Of a stretch of 7,461 nt of DNA, positions 1 to 7,461 are shown in pieces. Under the pieces are notes generated by a model. It worked only from the letters and a program-made list of their open reading frames with translations. It did not search any database and was not told where the DNA came from. The first letter of the stretch is position 1; each line of letters begins with the position of its first letter. The stretch is from a virus (taxonomy: Duplodnaviria; Heunggongvirae; Uroviricota; Caudoviricetes): the IMG/VR virus record IMGVR_UViG_2778261152_000006; one strand, written 5' to 3'. The translations under genes and the position numbers were made by a program.

Positions 1-201
1 TTCTTGATCTGTATCTTTATCTGTATCTTTATCTGTCGTGACTCGTCGTGACATGTGCGTGACATTTCGTGACGCGCTCACCAGGAGGTGGATATACACT
101 GCCATCACTGTTGCAATTGGCTGCCCTGACACCCTGGCAATTGTTCGCCACTTAGGGTCATTTGGCATGTCATGCCATAATCTGAGCCAGGCGTTAGCCA
201 T
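1..201 (-). CDS. Replication-initiation-like protein (YdaU/DUF1376-like), N-terminal 67 codons only; continues beyond window start
   Basis: Not in the ORF track because it runs off the edge. My own minus-strand translation from ATG (plus 199-201) gives MANAWLRLWHDMPNDPKWRTIARVSGQPIATVMAVYIHLLVSASRNVTHMSRRVTTDKDTDKDTDQE with no stop to position 1. SD-like GAGGTGA lies 5 nt upstream. Position directly downstream of the CII-like gene matches the lambda cro-cII-O layout. Family assignment is from memory of the motif pattern, not a search. Confidence 0.5.
   Translation of the reverse strand, partial: MANAWLRLWHDMPNDPKWRTIARVSGQPIATVMAVYIHLLVSASRNVTHMSRRVTTDKDTDKDTDQE
7..36. repeat. 12 bp tandem direct repeat ATCTGTATCTTT x2.5
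   Basis: atctgtatcttt atctgtatcttt atctgt read directly. Lies inside the YdaU-like coding frame (minus strand), where it encodes DKDTDKDTD. Confidence 0.8.
37..73. repeat. Four CGTGAC (GTCACG on minus) hexamer repeats phased at 10-11 bp; iteron-like
   Basis: CGTGAC at 37, 47, 58 and 68. The helical-turn spacing and the adjacent AT-rich tandem repeat resemble an iteron plus AT-rich origin arrangement. Confidence 0.6.
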
Positions 202-272
202 ACTCACCTCTTTTGATACCGAATCTTTTTACTCACAAATTGCCGGAAGTGATCCGGTATGAATATTGCGAG

Positions 273-698
273 TCAATGCACAGCCACAATATTTCCTGCA
301 GGGCCACCACGATTCATCTGGTTGAAACCAGCGATCGCCACTGCGACAAAATCATCAGCGTCTCTCACCAGTCGTTCCCGCGTCTCCACTAGTTCCCGAA
401 AATAGGCTGAGCTATGGCTGCGCATTCGGGCCACCAGCAGAGGTGGCATTGCTTTTTCGATAGCTGGTAACAACGCCTGAATTTTTTCAACTGCATCAGG
501 GGTGTCTTTCTCTACCCAGCGGAAAATTTTCTGGGTATTGCGAGCCAGGGCTTCCGGATGGCTGTCGTCATACAGTTCTGGGAACGTCATACCCAGTTCA
601 AAATAAGCCCTGGTTATTTCAGCTGCCGGAACTTTTTCACCGTCCGGATGCGCCCAGGCATTCATCGCCATGCGGATGTGTTCATGCTTGATTTTCAT
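273..698 (-). CDS. ydaT: CII-like prophage regulator (YdaT family), 141 aa
   Basis: ORF-track 141 aa protein starting MKIKHEHI, which I recall as the YdaT N-terminus. GGAG lies about 8 nt upstream of the ATG on the minus strand. Start overlaps the end of the upstream Cro-like gene by 17 nt. Symbol is tentative. Confidence 0.7.
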   Translation of the reverse strand: MKIKHEHIRMAMNAWAHPDGEKVPAAEITRAYFELGMTFPELYDDSHPEALARNTQKIFRWVEKDTPDAVEKIQALLPAIEKAMPPLLVARMRSHSSAYFRELVETRERLVRDADDFVAVAIAGFNQMNRGGPAGNIVAVH

Positions 699-963
699 GA
701 ATCAAGCTCCTAGAAAGTGGTTGTGTTAACATTTTGGTATCTTCCAGCTCGGGCCAAATATTCATCCAATCAAAAGGCCTTAGTTGCTGACGTGTAACTT
801 CACCATTACTGGCTCGCTCAATAAGGACACATAACGATGCCCCTAACACTTGACCTTTACTCAATGCCTTTCTTAGATAACCGATGCTGGTACCACACTC
901 GCATGCAAACATACGCTGTTCATCTGACGAAAGAGAATTGAGAAATATTCTTAATTCTTCCAT
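682..963 (-). CDS. Cro-like HTH regulator (YdaS-family analogue), 93 aa
   Basis: 93 aa ORF with an HTH-like segment (ECGTSIGYLRKALSKGQ) and a ...GEVTRQQLRPFDW tail typical of Cro/YdaS-family proteins. Strong SD AAGGAG 6 nt upstream of the ATG on the minus strand. Divergent from the repressor gene across a 100 bp operator-bearing intergenic region. Confidence 0.7.
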   Translation of the reverse strand: MEELRIFLNSLSSDEQRMFACECGTSIGYLRKALSKGQVLGASLCVLIERASNGEVTRQQLRPFDWMNIWPELEDTKMLTQPLSRSLIHENQA

Positions 964-992
964 AGCTACTCCTTAGTAAACACAGCAAAGAA

Positions 993-1069
993 CACCCATA
1001 GGTAAACAAAAGTCAATACCCACAGGTTGTTTACCTTGCAGTAATCGCATCTATTATTTACCTATGGAC
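993..1069. promoter_or_regulatory. OR-like operator cluster between the divergent Cro-like and repressor genes; repeated TACC-N4-GGTA / GGTAAA half-sites
   Basis: CCATAGGTAAA at 996-1006 and its reverse complement TTTACCTATGG at 1057-1067 (11/11). GGTAAACAA at 1001-1009 and its reverse complement TTGTTTACC at 1027-1035. The last site overlaps the repressor ATG at 1064. Confidence 0.5.
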
Positions 1070-1483
1070 AAATATGAATTTAGACGACAGCAACTCATCA
1101 AAATTCGTGATGAGAAATGCGATGGTAAAGCGGTTAACGTGGCCAGAAAGATCGGGCGCGAGCCTTCTTATGTATCAAGAATGTTGTACCCAGAGGGGAA
1201 AAAGGGAAAAAAACGGATCGCTGATGATATGGTGGAGATTATCGAAGAGTCCTTTGGGTTACCCCGGGGATGGATGGATGGTATCGTTTCATCATCAACG
1301 AACACAGCCTCCAGTTATGAAACAAGGGTTCTAACGCCACGACAACGTATTTTTTTAGATCTCTTAGACGAACTGCCAGAAAGTGAAGCGGATAACTTAT
1401 TAAAAACTCTTGAAGAGAAAAAACAGTATTACAATATGATCTACGAAGAAATCCGTAAAAAGAAAGCACAAAACGCATCATAG
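1064..1483 (+). CDS. Prophage repressor (CI/RacR analogue, HTH), 139 aa
   Basis: 139 aa ORF divergent from the Cro-like gene, in the position of racR/cI. No in-frame alternative start upstream (stop at 977-979) and no SD, suggesting a leaderless mRNA. Shorter than the 158 aa I recall for K-12 RacR, so probably a variant immunity allele. Confidence 0.7.
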   Translation: MDKYEFRRQQLIKIRDEKCDGKAVNVARKIGREPSYVSRMLYPEGKKGKKRIADDMVEIIEESFGLPRGWMDGIVSSSTNTASSYETRVLTPRQRIFLDLLDELPESEADNLLKTLEEKKQYYNMIYEEIRKKKAQNAS

Positions 1484-1525
1484 CTCACCAAACAACTAGT
1501 CACCAGTTAAGACACCGCAAAAAGT

Positions 1526-1574
1526 TACCCATGGGTATTTACTTTTTAAATACCTATGGGTATCCTTCTTTTCA
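1526..1574 (+). promoter_or_regulatory. OL-like operator palindrome downstream of the repressor gene; also folds as a 15 bp stem-loop followed by a T-rich tract (possible terminator)
   Basis: TACCCATGGGTATTT (1526-1540) and the reverse complement of 1548-1562 (TACCCATAGGTATTT) match 14/15, the mismatch being a G-U wobble in RNA. Loop 1541-1547. Followed by ATCCTTCTTTT. Core ACCCAT(A/G)GGTA is the same motif as at 995-1004. Confidence 0.45.
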
Positions 1575-1737
1575 TACCAACCCACCCCGCCCCACAGAAT
1601 GCAGGGCAATACTTCGAGTTACCAGGCAGTGGTCAGGGGTTAAGTAGCCAGCCCGAGGCGTAAGAACATGACGGCGGGATTCAAATTTTGCAGTGCAGCA
1701 GTTAGTTCCGCCACCCGGCGTTAAGGGGAGAGATAAG

Positions 1738-1872
1738 ATGGTGCATTACGAAGTAGTTCAGTATTTGATGGATTGTTGCGGTATCACTTACAACCAGGCT
1801 GTGCAGGCTTTACGCAGCAACGACTGGGATCTCTGGCAGGCAGAAGTCGCTATACGTAGCAACAAGATGTGA
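1738..1872 (+). CDS. ydaG: Small Rac prophage protein YdaG (44 aa)
   Basis: My translation MVHYEVVQYLMDCCGITYNQAVQALRSNDWDLWQAEVAIRSNKM matches my recollection of K-12 YdaG. SD AGGGGAG about 7 nt upstream. Below the ORF-track size cutoff. Confidence 0.7.
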   Translation: MVHYEVVQYLMDCCGITYNQAVQALRSNDWDLWQAEVAIRSNKM

Positions 1873-1882
1873 GATTCGCAAA

Positions 1883-2038
1883 ATGCAAAAAATCGACCTC
1901 GGCAACAACGAATCCCTGGTGTGCGGCGTGTTCCCCAACCAGGATGGAACGTTCACTGCCATGACGTATACCAAAAGCAAAACATTTAAAACCGAAACTG
2001 GTGCGCGCCGATGGTTGGAGAAGCACACAGTAAGCTAA
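1883..2038 (+). CDS. ydaF: Small Rac prophage protein YdaF (51 aa)
   Basis: My translation MQKIDLGNNESLVCGVFPNQDGTFTAMTYTKSKTFKTETGARRWLEKHTVS matches my recollection of K-12 YdaF. Stop TAA at 2036-2038 overlaps the convergent sieB stop. Confidence 0.65.
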   Translation: MQKIDLGNNESLVCGVFPNQDGTFTAMTYTKSKTFKTETGARRWLEKHTVS

Positions 2039-2523
2039 CGATTAAAACGTCTACTCCTGCTGTTCCAGAATAACTTCATAAAATGGGAGTATTTTTCGGT
2101 GACGAGATAATAAGAACAGTTTGCGCTATCACTCTGATGTTGAATGATGCCCTTCCGTTCTAATTTTTTCATAACCGGGTTACGGCAAGGAGAAGTGATA
2201 ATAAGATTTCCTGTTTTAAGGAAATCTTTAAATACAGCGATTTCTTTCTCAGATAAACGAAGCAATACTCGTTGCTCTGGTAGTAATGAATAATGCTTTT
2301 GAATATGTGCTCGCAATCTTGAGAAGGAAATGGCGACCACGAAAGAAAAGGCAAAAACGATAATCTGAAAGAGCCAAGGCATTTCAGTATAAGCATTGAA
2401 TGCGACAGTAAACTCTTTCGGTATCAGCCAGAGAGTGAGACCAAAAATGATAATCGTATACATAAGTCTTTCGAGTGGCTCGTTAGCAAAAAGTTTCAAC
2501 AATGGAGTAAATACATCCAACAT
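2035..2523 (-). CDS. sieB: Superinfection exclusion protein B (162 aa)
   Basis: The 266 aa track ORF (2035-2835, minus) contains the SieB sequence from its internal Met105 (MLDVFTPLLKLFANEPL...). ATG at plus 2521-2523 (cat on plus). Hydrophobic membrane segments are present. I chose the internal start because it matches the known about 162 aa protein. Confidence 0.8.
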   Translation of the reverse strand: MLDVFTPLLKLFANEPLERLMYTIIIFGLTLWLIPKEFTVAFNAYTEMPWLFQIIVFAFSFVVAISFSRLRAHIQKHYSLLPEQRVLLRLSEKEIAVFKDFLKTGNLIITSPCRNPVMKKLERKGIIQHQSDSANCSYYLVTEKYSHFMKLFWNSRSRRFNR

Positions 2524-2740
2524 ATCAATAACTCTCAACTGTAAGGGTATTGAAATGTTAACACAAGCTCTCGCTGTAGGGGTATAGCCGAGACCACCGA
2601 AGCCCGGAGGTGGTGAAATAAAACCGGGCACAACACGAAGGCGCATTTCCGATATCCATAAAGAGTCGGTCTTGTCTGTTAAATTTAAATGGTGGAGTGC
2701 GCCTCCGGTTGTAAATAACGACATTGCTGTGTGTAGTCCT

Positions 2741-2792
2741 GGCGGCATCAGTTTTTTTCTTGAAGTTCGGCTGATGTCCGCCCTTTTTAAAG
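2741..2792 (+). terminator. Candidate plus-strand intrinsic terminator (tL-like) in the sieB-kilR intergenic region
   Basis: GGCGGCATCAG (2741-2751) pairs with CTGATGTCCGCC (2771-2782): 11 bp with one bulge and a GC-rich base, followed by CTTTTTAAA. The 19 nt loop is unusually large, which lowers confidence. Confidence 0.3.
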
Positions 2793-2963
2793 TGAATTTT
2801 GTGATGCGGTGAATGCGGCTAAGCGCACGTGGCACAGTTAAAAGTCATGTTAGTCCTTATTGGTTTGGGTGGGAAAGCCGACTGTAATTGTTAACTGGTT
2901 GCAGTCACCTGGAGGCACCAGGCACCGCATCAACAAAGTTCATTTGTAAAAATGGAGATAATT

Positions 2964-3185
2964 ATGATTGCACATCACTTCGGAACTGATGAAATACCAC
3001 GTCAGTGTGTGACTCCTGGCGATTATGTTCTTCATGAAGGCCGGACATATATTGCCTCGGCAAACAATATTAAAAAGCGAAAACTATATATTCGTAACCT
3101 GACCACAAAAACATGCATTACTGACCGCATGATTAAAGTCTTCCTCGGTCGTGATGGTTTACCTGTAAAGGCGGAGTCATGGTGA
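2964..3185 (+). CDS. kilR: KilR, Rac prophage cell-division (FtsZ) inhibitor, 73 aa
   Basis: [77 protein letters not shown] at 2954-2957, 6 nt before ATG 2964. The track ORF starts 12 nt earlier at ATG 2952, but that start lacks the SD spacing. Confidence 0.8.
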
Positions 3186-3355
3186 TGACTAAGAAAATAA
3201 AATGTGCTTACCACCTTTGCAAAAAAGACGTTGAAGAAAGCAAAGCTATTGAAAGAATGCTTCACTTCATGCACGGGATTTTATCAAAAGACGAACCGAG
3301 AAAATATTGCAGTGAAGCTTGTGCCGAAAAAGACCAGATGGCACATGAACTTTAA
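3185..3355 (+). CDS. ydaE: YdaE, small Cys-rich (CxxC...CxxC) protein, 56 aa
   Basis: My translation [56 protein letters not shown]. Its ATG overlaps the kilR stop (TGATG). Below the track size cutoff. Confidence 0.7.
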   Translation: MTKKIKCAYHLCKKDVEESKAIERMLHFMHGILSKDEPRKYCSEACAEKDQMAHEL

Positions 3356-3429
3356 TTAATTGACTATTCGAAACTGAATTTATGCCAGAAATGGCAGGTA
3401 TTCGCTCAACCTTAATTAAGGAGAAAAAC

Positions 3430-3705
3430 ATGATTACCAATTATGAAGCCACTGTTGTAACTACCGATGACATTGTTCACGAGGTGAATCTGGAAGGAAA
3501 GCGCATTGGCTACGTAATTAAAACAGAAAATAAAGAAACCCCATTCACTGTGGTTGATATCGATGGTCCATCAGGCAACGTAAAAACACTTGATGAAGGT
3601 GTCAAAAAAATGTGCCTGGTGCATATCGGAAAGAATCTGCCCGCAGAAAAAAAAGCCGAATTTCTGGCAACTCTAATTGCAATGAAATTAAAAGGTGAAA
3701 TCTGA
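3430..3705 (+). CDS. racC: RacC, 91 aa
   Basis: Track ORF 3382-3705; I take the internal start MITNYEAT... at 3430, which is preceded by a strong SD AAGGAG (3418-3423). This gives the 91 aa I recall for RacC. Confidence 0.8.
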   Translation: MITNYEATVVTTDDIVHEVNLEGKRIGYVIKTENKETPFTVVDIDGPSGNVKTLDEGVKKMCLVHIGKNLPAEKKAEFLATLIAMKLKGEI

Positions 3706-3711
3706 AAGAAA

Positions 3712-3734
3712 TAGCCTGCGTATGGCGCAGGCTA
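3712..3734. other. Perfect 9 bp inverted repeat with 5 nt loop between racC and recE
   Basis: TAGCCTGCG-TATGG-CGCAGGCTA, 7 nt after the racC stop and 72 nt before the recE ATG. No T-tract after it on the plus strand; T-rich sequence follows on the minus strand. Confidence 0.4.
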
Positions 3735-3806
3735 TGAACAGTGTGTATCCGGCAAGATCATTCACTGAACAAAACGAATTTTAATCTGAGTTGAGGTTAA
3801 AAAACA

Positions 3807-6407
3807 ATGAGCACAAAACCACTCTTCCTGTTACGGAAAGCGAAAAAATCATCCGGTGAACCTGACGTCGTCCTGTGGGCAAGCAACGATTTTGAATCGA
3901 CCTGTGCCACTCTGGACTACCTGATCGTTAAGTCAGGTAAAAAACTGAGCAGCTATTTTAAAGCTGTTGCCACGAATTTTCCTGTCGTTAATGACCTGCC
4001 CGCTGAAGGTGAGATCGATTTTACCTGGAGTGAACGCTATCAACTCAGCAAAGACTCCATGACATGGGAACTAAAACCGGGAGCAGCACCAGACAACGCT
4101 CACTATCAAGGCAATACCAACGTCAACGGCGAAGACATGACTGAGATTGAGGAGAATATGCTACTCCCAATTTCTGGCCAGGAACTGCCCATTCGTTGGC
4201 TTGCTCAACACGGCAGCGAAAAACCGGTAACGCACGTTTCACGCGACGGACTCCAGGCATTACACATTGCTCGGGCTGAAGAACTACCGGCTGTTACTGC
4301 CCTGGCTGTTTCCCACAAAACCAGCCTGCTCGACCCGCTGGAAATTCGCGAACTCCACAAACTGGTTCGTGACACTGACAAAGTTTTCCCTAATCCTGGT
4401 AATTCAAACCTGGGACTGATAACTGCTTTTTTCGAAGCATACCTGAACGCTGACTACACCGATCGAGGACTGCTGACAAAAGAGTGGATGAAGGGTAATC
4501 GTGTTTCACACATCACTCGCACGGCTTCCGGTGCTAATGCTGGCGGCGGAAACCTCACCGATCGCGGCGAAGGTTTCGTACACGATCTGACGTCACTGGC
4601 GCGCGACGTAGCCACTGGCGTACTGGCCCGTTCAATGGATCTGGACATCTATAACCTTCATCCGGCACACGCTAAACGCATTGAGGAAATTATCGCTGAA
4701 AATAAACCGCCCTTTTCTGTTTTCCGCGACAAATTCATCACCATGCCTGGCGGGCTGGATTATTCCCGCGCCATCGTGGTTGCGTCCGTAAAAGAAGCAC
4801 CAATTGGGATCGAGGTCATCCCCGCGCACGTCACTGAATATCTGAACAAAGTACTGACTGAAACCGATCATGCCAACCCTGATCCGGAAATCGTGGATAT
4901 TGCCTGCGGTCGCTCCTCTGCCCCGATGCCGCAGCGAGTAACAGAAGAAGGAAAACAGGATGATGAAGAAAAACCGCAACCATCTGGAACAACGGCAGTT
5001 GAACAGGGAGAGGCTGAAACAATGGAACCGGACGCAACTGAACATCATCAGGACACGCAGCCGCTGGATGCTCAGTCACAGGTAAATTCTGTTGATGCGA
5101 AATATCAGGAACTGCGGGCAGAACTCCATGAAGCCCGGAAAAACATTCCATCAAAAAATCCTGTCGATGCCGATAAATTGCTTGCTGCATCACGTGGTGA
5201 ATTTGTTGACGGAATTAGCGACCCGAACGATCCGAAATGGGTAAAGGGGATCCAGACTCGCGATTGTGTGTACCAGAACCAGCCAGAAACGGAAAAAACC
5301 AGCCCAGATATGAATCAACCTGAGCCAGTAGTGCAACAGGAACCGGAAATAGCCTGCAATGCCTGCGGCCAGACTGGCGGGGATAACTGCCCTGACTGTG
5401 GTGCGGTGATGGGCGACGCAACATACCAGGAAACATTCGCTGAAGAGAGTCAGGTTGAAGCTAAGGAAAATGATCCGGAGGAAATGGAAGGCGCTGAACA
5501 TCCGCACAATGAGAATGCTGGCAGCGATCCGCATCGCGATTGCAGTGATGAAACTGGCGAAGTCGCAGATCCCGTAATCGTAGAAGACATAGAGCCAGGT
5601 ATTTATTACGGAATTTCGAATGAGAATTACCACGCGGGTCCCGGTATCAGTAAGTCTCAGCTCGATGACATTGCTGATACTCCGGCACTATATTTGTGGC
5701 GTAAAAATGCCCCCGTGGACACCACAAAGACAAAAACGCTCGATTTAGGAACTGCTTTCCACTGCCGGGTACTTGAACCGGAAGAATTCAGTAACCGCTT
5801 TATCGTAGCACCTGAATTTAACCGCCGTACAAACGCCGGAAAAGAAGAAGAGAAAGCGTTTCTGATGGAATGCGCAAGCACAGGAAAAACGGTTATCACT
5901 GCGGAAGAAGGCCGGAAAATTGAACTCATGTATCAAAGCGTTATGGCTTTGCCGCTGGGGCAATGGCTTGTTGAAAGCGCCGGACACGCTGAATCATCAA
6001 TTTACTGGGAAGATCCTGAAACAGGAATTTTGTGTCGGTGCCGTCCGGACAAAATTATCCCTGAATTTCACTGGATCATGGACGTGAAAACTACGGCGGA
6101 TATTCAACGATTCAAAACCGCTTATTACGACTACCGCTATCACGTTCAGGATGCATTCTACAGTGACGGTTATGAAGCACAGTTTGGAGTGCAGCCAACT
6201 TTCGTTTTTCTGGTTGCCAGCACAACTATTGAATGCGGACGTTATCCGGTTGAAATTTTCATGATGGGCGAAGAAGCAAAACTGGCAGGTCAACAGGAAT
6301 ATCACCGCAATCTGCGAACCCTGTCTGACTGCCTGAATACCGATGAATGGCCAGCTATTAAGACATTATCACTGCCCCGCTGGGCTAAGGAATATGCAAA
6401 TGACTAA
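3807..6407 (+). CDS. recE: Exodeoxyribonuclease VIII (RecE), 866 aa
   Basis: 866 aa [32 protein letters not shown]... ending ...[11 protein letters not shown], matching the length and sequence I recall for K-12 RecE. The C-terminal third carries the nuclease domain; the middle is acidic and low-complexity. GAGG 9 nt upstream of the ATG. Confidence 0.95.
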
Positions 6408-7086
6408 GCAACCACCAATCGCAAAAGCCGATCTGCAAAAAACCCAGGGAAACCGTGCACCAGCAGCAGTTAAAAATAGCGACGTGATTAGTTTTATTAA
6501 CCAGCCATCAATGAAAGAGCAACTGGCAGCAGCTCTTCCACGCCATATGACGGCTGAACGTATGATCCGTATCGCCACCACAGAAATTCGTAAAGTTCCG
6601 GCGTTAGGAAACTGTGACACTATGAGTTTTGTCAGTGCGATCGTACAGTGTTCACAGCTCGGACTTGAGCCAGGTAGCGCCCTCGGTCATGCATATTTAC
6701 TGCCTTTTGGTAATAAAAACGAAAAGAGCGGTAAAAAGAACGTTCAGCTAATCATTGGCTATCGCGGCATGATTGATCTGGCTCGCCGTTCTGGTCAAAT
6801 CGCCAGCCTGTCAGCCCGTGTTGTCCGTGAAGGTGACGAGTTTAGCTTCGAATTTGGCCTTGATGAAAAGTTAATACACCGCCCGGGAGAAAACGAAGAT
6901 GCCCCGGTTACCCACGTCTATGCTGTCGCAAGACTGAAAGACGGAGGTACTCAGTTTGAAGTTATGACGCGCAAACAGATTGAGCTGGTGCGCAGCCTGA
7001 GTAAAGCTGGTAATAACGGGCCGTGGGTAACTCACTGGGAAGAAATGGCAAAGAAAACGGGTGATGATGCCAACTTACTGATTTAG
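6400..7086 (+). CDS. recT: RecT recombinase, truncated by IS1: 220 native codons plus 8 IS1-encoded codons (GDDANLLI), then stop
   Basis: [32 protein letters not shown]... matches RecT up to ...WEEMAKKT. The IS1 terminal repeat then begins at 7060. Full-length RecT is 269 aa as I recall it. The ATG at 6400 overlaps the recE stop (ATGACTAA). Track ORF 6343-7086 starts at an upstream ATG that I regard as not used. Confidence 0.9.
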
Positions 7087-7114
7087 TGTATGATGGTGTT
7101 TTTGAGGTGCTCCA

Positions 7115-7390
7115 GTGGCTTCTGTTTCTATCAGCTGTCCCTCCTGTTCAGCTACTGACGGGGTGGTGCGTAACGGCAAAAGCACCGCCGGACATCAGCG
7201 CTATCTCTGCTCTCACTGCCGTAAAACATGGCAACTGCAGTTCACTTACACCGCTTCTCAACCCGGTACGCACCAGAAAATCATTGATATGGCCATGAAT
7301 GGCGTTGGATGCCGGGCAACCGCCCGCATTATGGGCGTTGGCCTCAACACGATTTTCCGCCATTTAAAAAACTCAGGCCGCAGTCGGTAA
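7115..7390 (+). CDS. insA: IS1 InsA (transposition regulator), 91 aa
   Basis: [91 protein letters not shown] is the IS1 InsA sequence. Confidence 0.95.
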
Positions 7391-7461
7391 CCTCGCGCAT
7401 ACAGCCGGGCAGTGACGTCATCGTCTGCGCGGAAATGGACGAACAGTGGGGCTATGTCGGG
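7309..7461 (+). CDS. insB: IS1 InsB (transposase frame), N-terminal 51 codons; partial at window end. Active product is the InsAB' frameshift fusion
   Basis: -1 frame relative to insA translates [51 protein letters not shown], matching the InsB N-terminus. Open to the end of the window. Confidence 0.8.
7366..7372 (+). other. IS1 A6C programmed -1 ribosomal frameshift motif (AAAAAAC) at the end of insA
   Basis: TTAAAAAAC at 7364-7372 sits in the insA/insB overlap, where the IS1 frameshift window is known to lie. Confidence 0.7.

Follow-up and report, generated by a model that had tools for sequence, protein, structure and literature searches.

The closest described counterpart of the locus studied here is the recET pair of the Escherichia coli K-12 prophage Rac (b1350/b1349), in which recT is intact at 269 aa, with ralR, rcbA, xisR and intR after it. 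The pair is silent under normal circumstances, and sbcA or lambda-rev activates it (PMC3945230). Recombination of double-stranded DNA requires both an exonuclease and an annealase (PMC5021808). In the homologous annealase LiRecT, residues K206, R210, N211 and K215 of helix alpha3 hold the inner strand, and W216 and I218 belong to the lower subunit core (PMC9772228). The LiRecT double mutants K206A/R210A, K206A/K215A, R210A/K215A and K215A/W216A have lost all DNA binding, and purification of W216R proved impossible (PMC9772228). Residues 225–271 of LiRecT have been proposed as a partner/SSB-binding domain (PMC9772228), and a role in contacting the exonuclease partner and SSB has been proposed for the C-terminal region of annealases (PMC9772228, PMC11611040).

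The window, by which we mean the whole stretch of 7,461 nt analysed here, contains the Rac gene order ydaT-ydaS-racR...sieB-kilR-ydaE-racC-recE-recT and shares with K-12 the arrangement of recE and recT, their 8-nt overlap and RecT residues 1–220, whereas its recT ends at codon 220, where it meets IS1. Positions 1573–7060 are 99.78% identical to Rac DNA of MG1655 (K-12), while the immunity region (1–1572) is an allele other than that of K-12. Positions 32–7060 are 99.87% identical to the Rac prophage of strain GS04, and since this near-identical prophage carries a full recT of 269 aa, the ancestral state of recT was intact. In all relatives inspected, Rac lies beside ttcA and has intR/xisR at the prophage end, which here falls beyond the window. 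A scan of the whole window with Rfam gathering thresholds for RNA elements gave no matches. The genes on the recET side of the joint are as follows:

3807–6407, + strand: recE (exonuclease VIII), full length, 866 aa, from the ORF list, with Pfam matches to Exonuc_VIII and the PDDEXK-like DUF3799
6400–7059, + strand: recT-derived part, codons 1–220 of 269, with 100% protein identity to K-12 and GS04 RecT over residues 1–220 and a Pfam RecT match
6400–7086, + strand: current reading frame, RecT(1–220) + GDDANLLI + TAG, a 228-aa product, from the ORF list, its translation and the exact protein in NCBI nr

The last 8 nt of recE overlap the start of recT (ATGACTAA), and RecE differs from that of K-12 by two substitutions (A455, A545) and from that of GS04 by none. 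Read directly, the joint runs ...GCA AAG AAA ACG / GGT GAT GAT GCC AAC TTA CTG ATT TAG, with the final recT base at 7059, the start of IS1 at 7060 and the stop codon at 7084–7086. The G at 7060 would also fit as first base of recT codon 221 (GCT), which leaves an uncertainty of 1 nt in the junction; we assign this base to IS1 because IS1 ends start with GG. Translation of 6400–7086 gives 220 residues identical to K-12 RecT (NP_415865), followed by the IS1-encoded GDDANLLI, and the reference continues to residue 269 with the 49 residues missing here (221–269; AIRRLFKYLPVSIEIQRAVSMDEKEPLTIDPADSSVLTGEYSVIDNSEE). Consistent with the preliminary description of this DNA, which had read an IS1 terminal inverted repeat from 7060 directly after recT codon 220, eight IS1 codons up to the stop, a loss of about 49 residues from a RecT of 269 aa, and an intact recE, each of these points holds when checked by sequence reading, by translation and against the reference protein. 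An exact protein look-up finds the 228-aa product in NCBI nr under the accessions RCQ21649.1 / TFA74615.1 with the title "recombination protein RecT [Escherichia coli]", from six contigs, and these entries are best read as the product of an IS1-truncated pseudogene rather than a short variant of RecT. A naturally short RecT isoform is excluded by the IS1 origin of the tail and by recT being near full length (gene coverage of 80% or more) in 1,625 of 1,749 complete genomes with the gene.

Sequence to the right of the joint belongs to the left part of an IS1 element, in the same orientation as recT:

7060–7461, + strand: IS1, left 402 nt of ~768, the window ending inside the element; identity 99.25% with the B19695 IS1 copies and 98% with IS1A of H7
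7060–7082, + strand: IS1 left terminal inverted repeat GGTGATGATGCCAACTTACTGAT, with A at position 9 in place of the commoner C
7115–7390, + strand: insA, 91 aa, with Pfam domains Zn_ribbon_InsA (3e-21) and HTH_Tnp_IS1 (1.7e-30)
7366–7372, + strand: AAAAAAC, the −1 programmed frameshift site for the InsAB' transposase, recognised from sequence, with InsB' read in the −1 frame

The left end at 7060–7082 has the length (~23 bp) and the GGT(G/A)ATG start of an IS1 inverted repeat, and 364 E. coli records contain annotated IS1 ends that match the 71 nt from 7060 at 100% identity. The insA ORF carries both InsA domains (PF03811 and PF12759, in the order listed above). The −1 frame from 7369 reads the N-terminus of InsB', whose continuation in L003, the longest of the contigs with the same junction, matches Pfam DDE_Tnp_IS1 (PF03400) at 8.6e-54; the IS1 transposases of relatives are labelled "programmed frameshift" by RefSeq. 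IS1 is common in the species, with matches in 5,072 of 5,426 complete E. coli genomes. The A at IS1 position 9 was considered as a private mutation acquired after insertion and rejected, as the 364 records share this end; the A-variant, common to all five contigs with the junction (L003–L007), is a minor but ordinary variant.

The joint between recT and IS1 could in principle be an assembly chimera, in which a short-read assembler wrongly fused recT to a repeat. The window does end within a multi-copy repeat, and its bases 7452 and 7455 differ from L003, suggesting that IS1 copies were collapsed at contig ends. However, L003–L007 have the identical junction and 228-aa protein, and they derive from three NCBI assemblies (GCA_004380855.1, GCA_004172665.1, GCA_003334315.1) and at least two independent SRA runs from another pipeline (SRR16555215 / SRR35362009), and the IS1 end is of the minority A type in every one of these contigs. 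Moreover, there is no k-mer overlap to provoke a misjoin, because recT and IS1 have only 1 nt in common at the joint. A chimera is thus scarcely credible and effectively refuted, and we treat the junction as real. It was absent from all 5,426 complete E. coli genomes scanned, among which just two matched at least 80% of the junction query (NDM1, with another junction, and B19695, with an unrelated IS1 nearby), and the left junction was likewise absent from scans of metagenome, species-representative genome and viral contig collections. Because the junction is identical across several assemblies that otherwise differ, we take the allele to be passed on vertically within a small E. coli lineage.

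How the truncation affects RecT can be gauged by placing the cut on the solved structure of LiRecT. With LiRecT chain 7UB2_E, E. coli RecT aligns at E = 1.8e-14, anchored on the common MAKKT motif, and subtracting 3 from the chain numbering recovers K206, R210, N211, S214, K215 and W216 as published, so the register is self-consistent. In this sequence alignment the cut falls in alpha3, which is the final helix in the core of the RecT/Redbeta/RAD52 fold. The residue equivalent to LiRecT K206, E. coli K219, is kept, while the positions matching R210, N211, K215, W216 and I218 are lost, and the last ~17 residues of the ordered LiRecT core (Li 207 of 224) have no counterpart in RecT(1–220). The truncated protein consequently lacks a complete core fold with its alpha3 DNA contacts and subunit-interface residues, and the C-terminal partner/SSB region (residues 221–269) is absent altogether. 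Its Pfam RecT (PF03837) match spans residues 53–220, i.e. profile positions 1–164 of 198, at 161.7 bits (E = 2e-47), compared with residues 53–244, profile positions 1–187 and 188.9 bits for intact RecT.

Loss of the C-terminus need not by itself be fatal to annealing, to judge by analogy with the N-terminal lambda fragment Redbeta(1–177), a cryo-EM construct described as still binding and annealing DNA in vitro (PMC9512822). Like RecT(1–220), this fragment is C-terminally truncated and without the partner-binding domain, but it retains the complete core fold, whereas RecT(1–220) ends inside core helix alpha3. Retained function in the truncated RecT, be it binding of single-stranded DNA, a dominant-negative effect on RecT-type annealases of incoming phages or partner-free annealing, would be in keeping with the Redbeta(1–177) activity so described, with a frame maintained in several strains and with the share of the Pfam domain score that is kept (161.7 of 188.9 bits). 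We nevertheless regard it as very improbable: three of the four inner-strand residues of alpha3 and two hydrophobic interface residues are gone, and paired mutation of the lost residues abolishes DNA binding or solubility of LiRecT. In addition, the same recT allele is accompanied in L005 by the loss of recE codons 1 to ~549, as neutral decay predicts, and selection on the product is unlikely because the operon is silent in wild type. As the cut removes alpha3 residues whose paired mutation abolishes LiRecT DNA binding, the truncated recT is very probably a null allele encoding a dead annealase, a reading transferred from a homologue of ~25–30% identity. The recT of the window is accordingly best classed, on its sequence, as a gene remnant of the RecT/Redbeta family and not as a functional member.

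The sequence thus shows IS1 joined to the Rac recT between codons 220 and 221, and we posit with high confidence that the result is a null RecT. IS1 has transposed into, or had one of its ends joined to, recT of an E. coli Rac-type defective prophage, and translation runs eight codons into the IS1 left inverted repeat before stopping, to yield a 228-aa protein expected to be incapable of DNA binding, filament formation or pairing with RecE. Because the RecET annealing pathway needs both proteins, it would be lost despite the intact RecE. From the known biology of the operon, sbcA-type derepression should not revive RecET in this strain, and lambda-rev-type pickup should not rescue the recET pair. 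This supports the suggestion made in the preliminary description that RecET is probably non-functional or altered even if derepressed, and the location of the cut inside the DNA-binding helix alpha3 strengthens that case. In practical terms the Rac annealase copy of the strain is very probably dead, and a red-defective lambdoid phage could borrow no working recET pair from it. The further remark that the prophage is a decaying element is true but trivial, Rac being a defective prophage by definition. The locus is an ordinary, routine case of prophage decay, with little significance beyond bookkeeping.

What lies on the far side of IS1 bears on how the allele arose. The window reaches IS1 nt 402 and L003 reaches nt 667, and since the window and each of the five contigs with the junction end before the element does, the term insertion is only half documented. 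A simple insertion and a deletion towards intR are roughly evenly balanced, and the consequence for RecT is the same under both. IS1 normally makes a 9-bp target duplication, and simple insertion is the default outcome of its transposition. A simple insertion would leave a complete 768-bp IS1, a duplicated target, the last 150 nt of recT, and then ralR, rcbA, xisR and intR intact. The predicted target is:

7051–7059, no strand assigned: AAGAAAACG, the 9-bp duplication predicted if the event was a simple insertion, inferred from the usual IS1 duplication and from kilR::IS1 of H7

On this prediction the IS1 right end (…GTTGGAGTCATTACC) would be followed by AAGAAAACGGCTATTCG, and with the 9-bp duplication the right end …AAGTTGGAGTCATTACC would be followed by AAGAAAACGGCTATTCGTCGCCTG. 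We give the simple insertion slightly below an even chance. In its favour, E. coli H7 (NZ_CP010171), whose Rac is 99.9% identical to that of the window, carries an IS1 of the same orientation in a different gene, kilR, as a clean simple insertion with the 9-bp duplication GGCCGGACA on both sides and recT intact; the closest intact relatives, too, hold the full recT-ralR-rcbA-xisR-intR block. Against it, the two complete genomes with IS1 in recT both show deletions, and the predicted right-junction ORFs (69, 67, 63, 61 and 34 aa, for an 8- or 9-bp duplication) have no exact match in a collection of 15 billion proteins, a weak objection given that gene callers may skip such ORFs. A search of metagenome and species-representative contigs for the IS1 right end followed by a 7–11 bp duplication and the recT remainder found none, which is uninformative as these contigs also lack the left junction.

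A deletion, the alternative to a simple insertion named in the preliminary description, has to be weighed here because both complete-genome analogues are deletions. NDM1 (NZ_CP083888, at recT nt 662) and ET245 (NZ_CP100978, at nt 626) are the only two complete genomes with IS1 in recT, and neither has a target duplication. In NDM1, recT nt 662 is joined through IS1 to intR nt 626 with 1,521 bp lost, and in ET245, recT nt 626 is joined through IS1 to intR nt 387 with 1,315 bp lost; both are deletions of the recT 3' end, ralR, rcbA and xisR into a 5'-truncated intR, and in both the recT is labelled "incomplete; missing C-terminus" by PGAP. They share with the window the orientation of IS1 and a joint only 2 bp (NDM1) and 34 bp (ET245) from the window site, but represent independent events with other IS1 variants (that of NDM1 ~5% divergent) and other junction bases, and their right sides are deletions into intR whereas the window sequence ends inside IS1. 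An equivalent deletion here, for which we see about an even chance, would bring the IS1 right end against farther DNA, most likely within intR, removing the recT 3' end, ralR, rcbA, xisR and the 5' part of intR, either by intramolecular transposition of IS1 (adjacent deletion) or by IS1–IS1 recombination. It agrees with the absence of a target duplication in NDM1, in ET245 and in B19695 (rcbA joined through IS1 to intR, 551 bp lost), all with IS1 oriented as in the window, and with five of the seven IS1 copies examined in Rac regions, which have no target duplication and bound missing Rac DNA. This sample is, however, small and biased, the genomes having been located through truncated matches, and the analogues, as independent events with different IS1 variants, provide a base rate only. 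One of the five copies, the inverted IS1 at recE of ET245, could reflect another type of rearrangement.

Taken with the window, NDM1 and ET245 make three independent IS1 joins, which fall in 37 bp of recT and share one orientation, and every recT::IS1 case whose far side is seen ends inside intR. It is conceivable, though rather unlikely, that the 3' third of recT (nt 626–662) is a target hot spot for IS1 or that IS1-mediated loss of this prophage end has been repeatedly selected; if the latter were true, loss of recT-ralR-xisR-intR would lock in the prophage and remove the RalR toxin. The clustering in recT, together with the recurrent deletions into intR, is a modest further example of insertion sequences eroding and immobilising defective prophages.

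The window is the early-left arm of a defective lambdoid prophage of the Rac type from Escherichia coli, with the following gene content:

Left end of the window, 5' part of a replisome-organizer gene
273-698, minus strand, ydaT
682-963, minus strand, ydaS-like gene
1064-1483, racR-like repressor gene
Right of the racR-like gene, minus strand, ydaG, ydaF and sieB
Between sieB and recE, kilR, ydaE and racC
3807-6407, recE
Start at 6400, recT

From 1573 onward the window shares 99.78% identity with Rac of K-12 MG1655, and over 32-7060 its identity with the Rac prophage of GS04 is 99.87%. The recT frame leads directly into an IS1 element, with the recT codons GCA AAG AAA ACG (last base 7059) followed by GGT GAT GAT GCC AAC TTA CTG ATT TAG (first IS1 base 7060, stop codon 7084-7086). 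The product thus consists of 220 residues identical to RecT of K-12 and GS04 (269 aa) and an IS1-encoded tail, GDDANLLI, and lacks 49 residues (AIRRLFKYLPVSIEIQRAVSMDEKEPLTIDPADSSVLTGEYSVIDNSEE). Sequence reading and comparison with K-12 and GS04 therefore bear out the preliminary description, which had placed the IS1 end at 7060, the cut after codon 220 and the stop behind GDDANLLI, and had reported the loss of 49 of 269 residues and an intact recE. The latter encodes 866 aa with two substitutions relative to K-12 (A455, A545) and none relative to GS04, and matches both expected Pfam domains.

The element downstream of codon 220 is recognisable as IS1 by the features that can be checked in its left half, the window stopping at IS1 nt 402. 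Over its first 71 nt it agrees base for base with the IS1 ends annotated in 364 E. coli records, an ORF at 7115-7390 matches both InsA Pfam domains, and an AAAAAAC slip site is located at 7366-7372, where the -1 frame gives the InsB' N-terminus and, continued in contig L003 (which shares the junction), matches DDE_Tnp_IS1. At position 9 (window 7068) the left inverted repeat GGTGATGATGCC has an A where C is usual; this minority variant is nevertheless shared by the 364 E. coli records, among them relatives such as CP53. Within IS1, window 7452 and 7455 differ from L003 (C/A and T/C), probably reflecting different IS1 copies collapsed at the contig ends of short-read assemblies.

The recT-IS1 junction is real. 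The exact 228-aa protein is encoded in three NCBI assemblies (GCA_004380855.1, GCA_004172665.1, GCA_003334315.1) and on Logan assembly contigs from at least two sequencing runs, and every contig encoding it shows this exact junction together with the same minority variant of the IS1 end. Since the overlap between recT and IS1 at the joint is a single base, a misjoin through a shared k-mer is implausible. In NCBI nr the protein is listed as 'recombination protein RecT [Escherichia coli]' (RCQ21649.1, TFA74615.1; six contigs). The allele is also rare: it is absent from all 5,426 complete E. coli genomes screened, of which 1,749 carry a Rac-type recT and 1,625 carry it at close to full length. 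In the closest relatives (GS04, H7, NT1F31 and others; 99.8-99.9% identity) recT is intact and precedes ralR, rcbA, xisR, intR and ttcA, indicating that this order is the ancestral state. One contig with the identical junction, L005 (GCA_003334315.1), additionally has a 2,641-bp deletion at 3233/3234 (window 2811/5453) which takes out kilR, ydaE, racC and the first ~549 codons of recE, leaving both RecET halves dead in this strain.

The window and every contig with the junction end inside IS1, as expected of short-read assemblies. Pattern scans of metagenome and species-representative genome collections gave no match to the right junction predicted by a simple insertion; these negatives carry no weight because the left junction was likewise absent from those and from viral-contig collections. 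ORFs predicted to span the right junction were absent from the protein collection, and such ORFs might never be called as genes. Analogous IS1 junctions were mapped onto GS04:

NDM1 (NZ_CP083888): recT nt 662, IS1, intR nt 626; 1,521 bp lost; no target duplication
ET245 (NZ_CP100978): recT nt 626, IS1, intR nt 387; 1,315 bp lost; no target duplication
B19695: rcbA, IS1, intR; 551 bp lost; no target duplication
H7 (NZ_CP010171): kilR, IS1, kilR; simple insertion; 9-bp target duplication

The first three are independent events, as their IS1 sequence variants differ, and share the IS1 orientation of the window. The two cases in which IS1 is known to lie in recT (NDM1 and ET245) are deletions without target duplication, the scenario which the preliminary description had set against a simple insertion. 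For the present lineage we regard simple insertion and IS1-bounded deletion as about equally probable; the consequence for RecT is identical under both.

NDM1, ET245 and B19695 represent recurrent IS1-bounded deletions of ralR, rcbA, xisR and the 5' part of intR, a loss that would immobilise the prophage. The IS1 right end adjoins intR at three different internal positions (NDM1, L001 8930/8931; ET245, L011 5394/5395; B19695, L002 9394/9395). On the recT side, three independent IS1 variants are joined within 37 bp in one orientation, at nt 660 (window), 662 (NDM1) and 626 (ET245), with left ends GGTGATGATG, GGTAATGGTG (L001 8162/8163) and GGTGATGCTG (L011 4626/4627), and recT nt 626-662 (window 7025-7061) thus looks like an IS1 hot region. 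Clustering in recT and repeated ends in intR could stem from a target preference of IS1 or from selection favouring loss of the Rac excision/toxin end, for which three cases offer a lead and no more. The recT target region contains the IS1-end-like strings GGTAATAACGG and GGTAACTCACTGG and an A-tract. In ET245 a second, inverted IS1 (L011 797-1563) truncates the recE 5' end, bracketing the Rac remnant between two IS1 copies. In NT1F31, IS1 (L012 7092-7859) lies in sieB with the same 296 bp of sieB (GS04 8296-8591) on both sides and no 9-bp duplication; PGAP annotates a partial sieB and a complete one.

E. coli RecT can be aligned to LiRecT, the RecT of the Listeria innocua prophage A118 (7UB2, cryo-EM; E = 1.8e-14), and a shared MAKKT motif anchors the alignment exactly at the cut. 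K219, T220, R223, R224, K227 and Y228 correspond to LiRecT K206, T207, R210, N211, K215 and W216. The register is self-consistent, since 7UB2 chain numbering minus 3 gives the published K206, R210, N211, S214, K215 and W216. The modelled LiRecT core comprises residues 34-224, in which alpha3 is the last helix and, with alpha2, makes up the floor of the groove that binds DNA. The inner DNA strand is held by alpha3 residues K206, R210, N211 and K215, counterparts of RAD52 alpha3 DNA-binding residues; the lower hydrophobic core between subunits is built from W216 and I218, and residues 225-271 are a proposed small partner/SSB-binding domain (PMC9772228). DNA binding is lost in the double mutants K206A/R210A, K206A/K215A, R210A/K215A and K215A/W216A, and W216R could not be purified (PMC9772228). 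By this alignment and these assignments, the IS1 junction is predicted to split alpha3 directly after its first lysine, removing ~17 residues of ordered core and the whole C-terminal region. The Pfam match is in line with this, shortened from profile positions 1-187 (188.9 bits) in intact RecT to 1-164 (161.7 bits). The truncated product still fits the family profile but lacks the complete core fold; the recT remnant should therefore be filed as a pseudogene, not a short RecT. From the homologue, we infer that recT(1-220)+GDDANLLI is a null allele. DNA annealing in vitro is described for Redbeta(1-177) (PMC9512822), which we rejected as a counter-example as this fragment keeps the full core fold.

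Double-stranded DNA recombination by such systems requires both exonuclease and annealase (PMC5021808), and intact recE can thus not sustain the pathway. Together with the mapping onto LiRecT, this supports the earlier suggestion that RecET is probably non-functional. Without activation by sbcA mutations or capture by lambda, the operon is silent anyway (PMC3945230). Truncation and loss of RecT function are supported, and the finding is ordinary overall: Rac recET and IS1 are textbook, as are pseudogenisation and adjacent deletion caused by insertion sequences in defective prophages, and NDM1/ET245-type alleles are already labelled 'recT, incomplete, missing C-terminus' by the NCBI pipeline. 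Only two points are mildly unexpected, namely the three IS1 variants within 37 bp of recT and the deletions repeatedly ending in intR.

Compared with GS04, L003, L004 and L005, the replisome-organizer (O-like) gene of the window lacks 270 bp, an in-frame difference of 90 codons. GS04 6001-6077 matches window 1-77, and the window sequence resumes at GS04 ~6348 (window 1-130 against L009 6001-6400), with the breakpoint among arrayed iteron-like repeats that contain CGTGAC; either a genuine deletion within the iteron array or collapse of repeats at a contig end could account for this. Window 1-1572, the immunity/replication side with ydaT, the ydaS-like gene and the racR-like 139-aa gene, has no K-12 Rac match, and NDM1 carries a further allele there with a LexA-family repressor; such allele differences are typical of lambdoid mosaicism.
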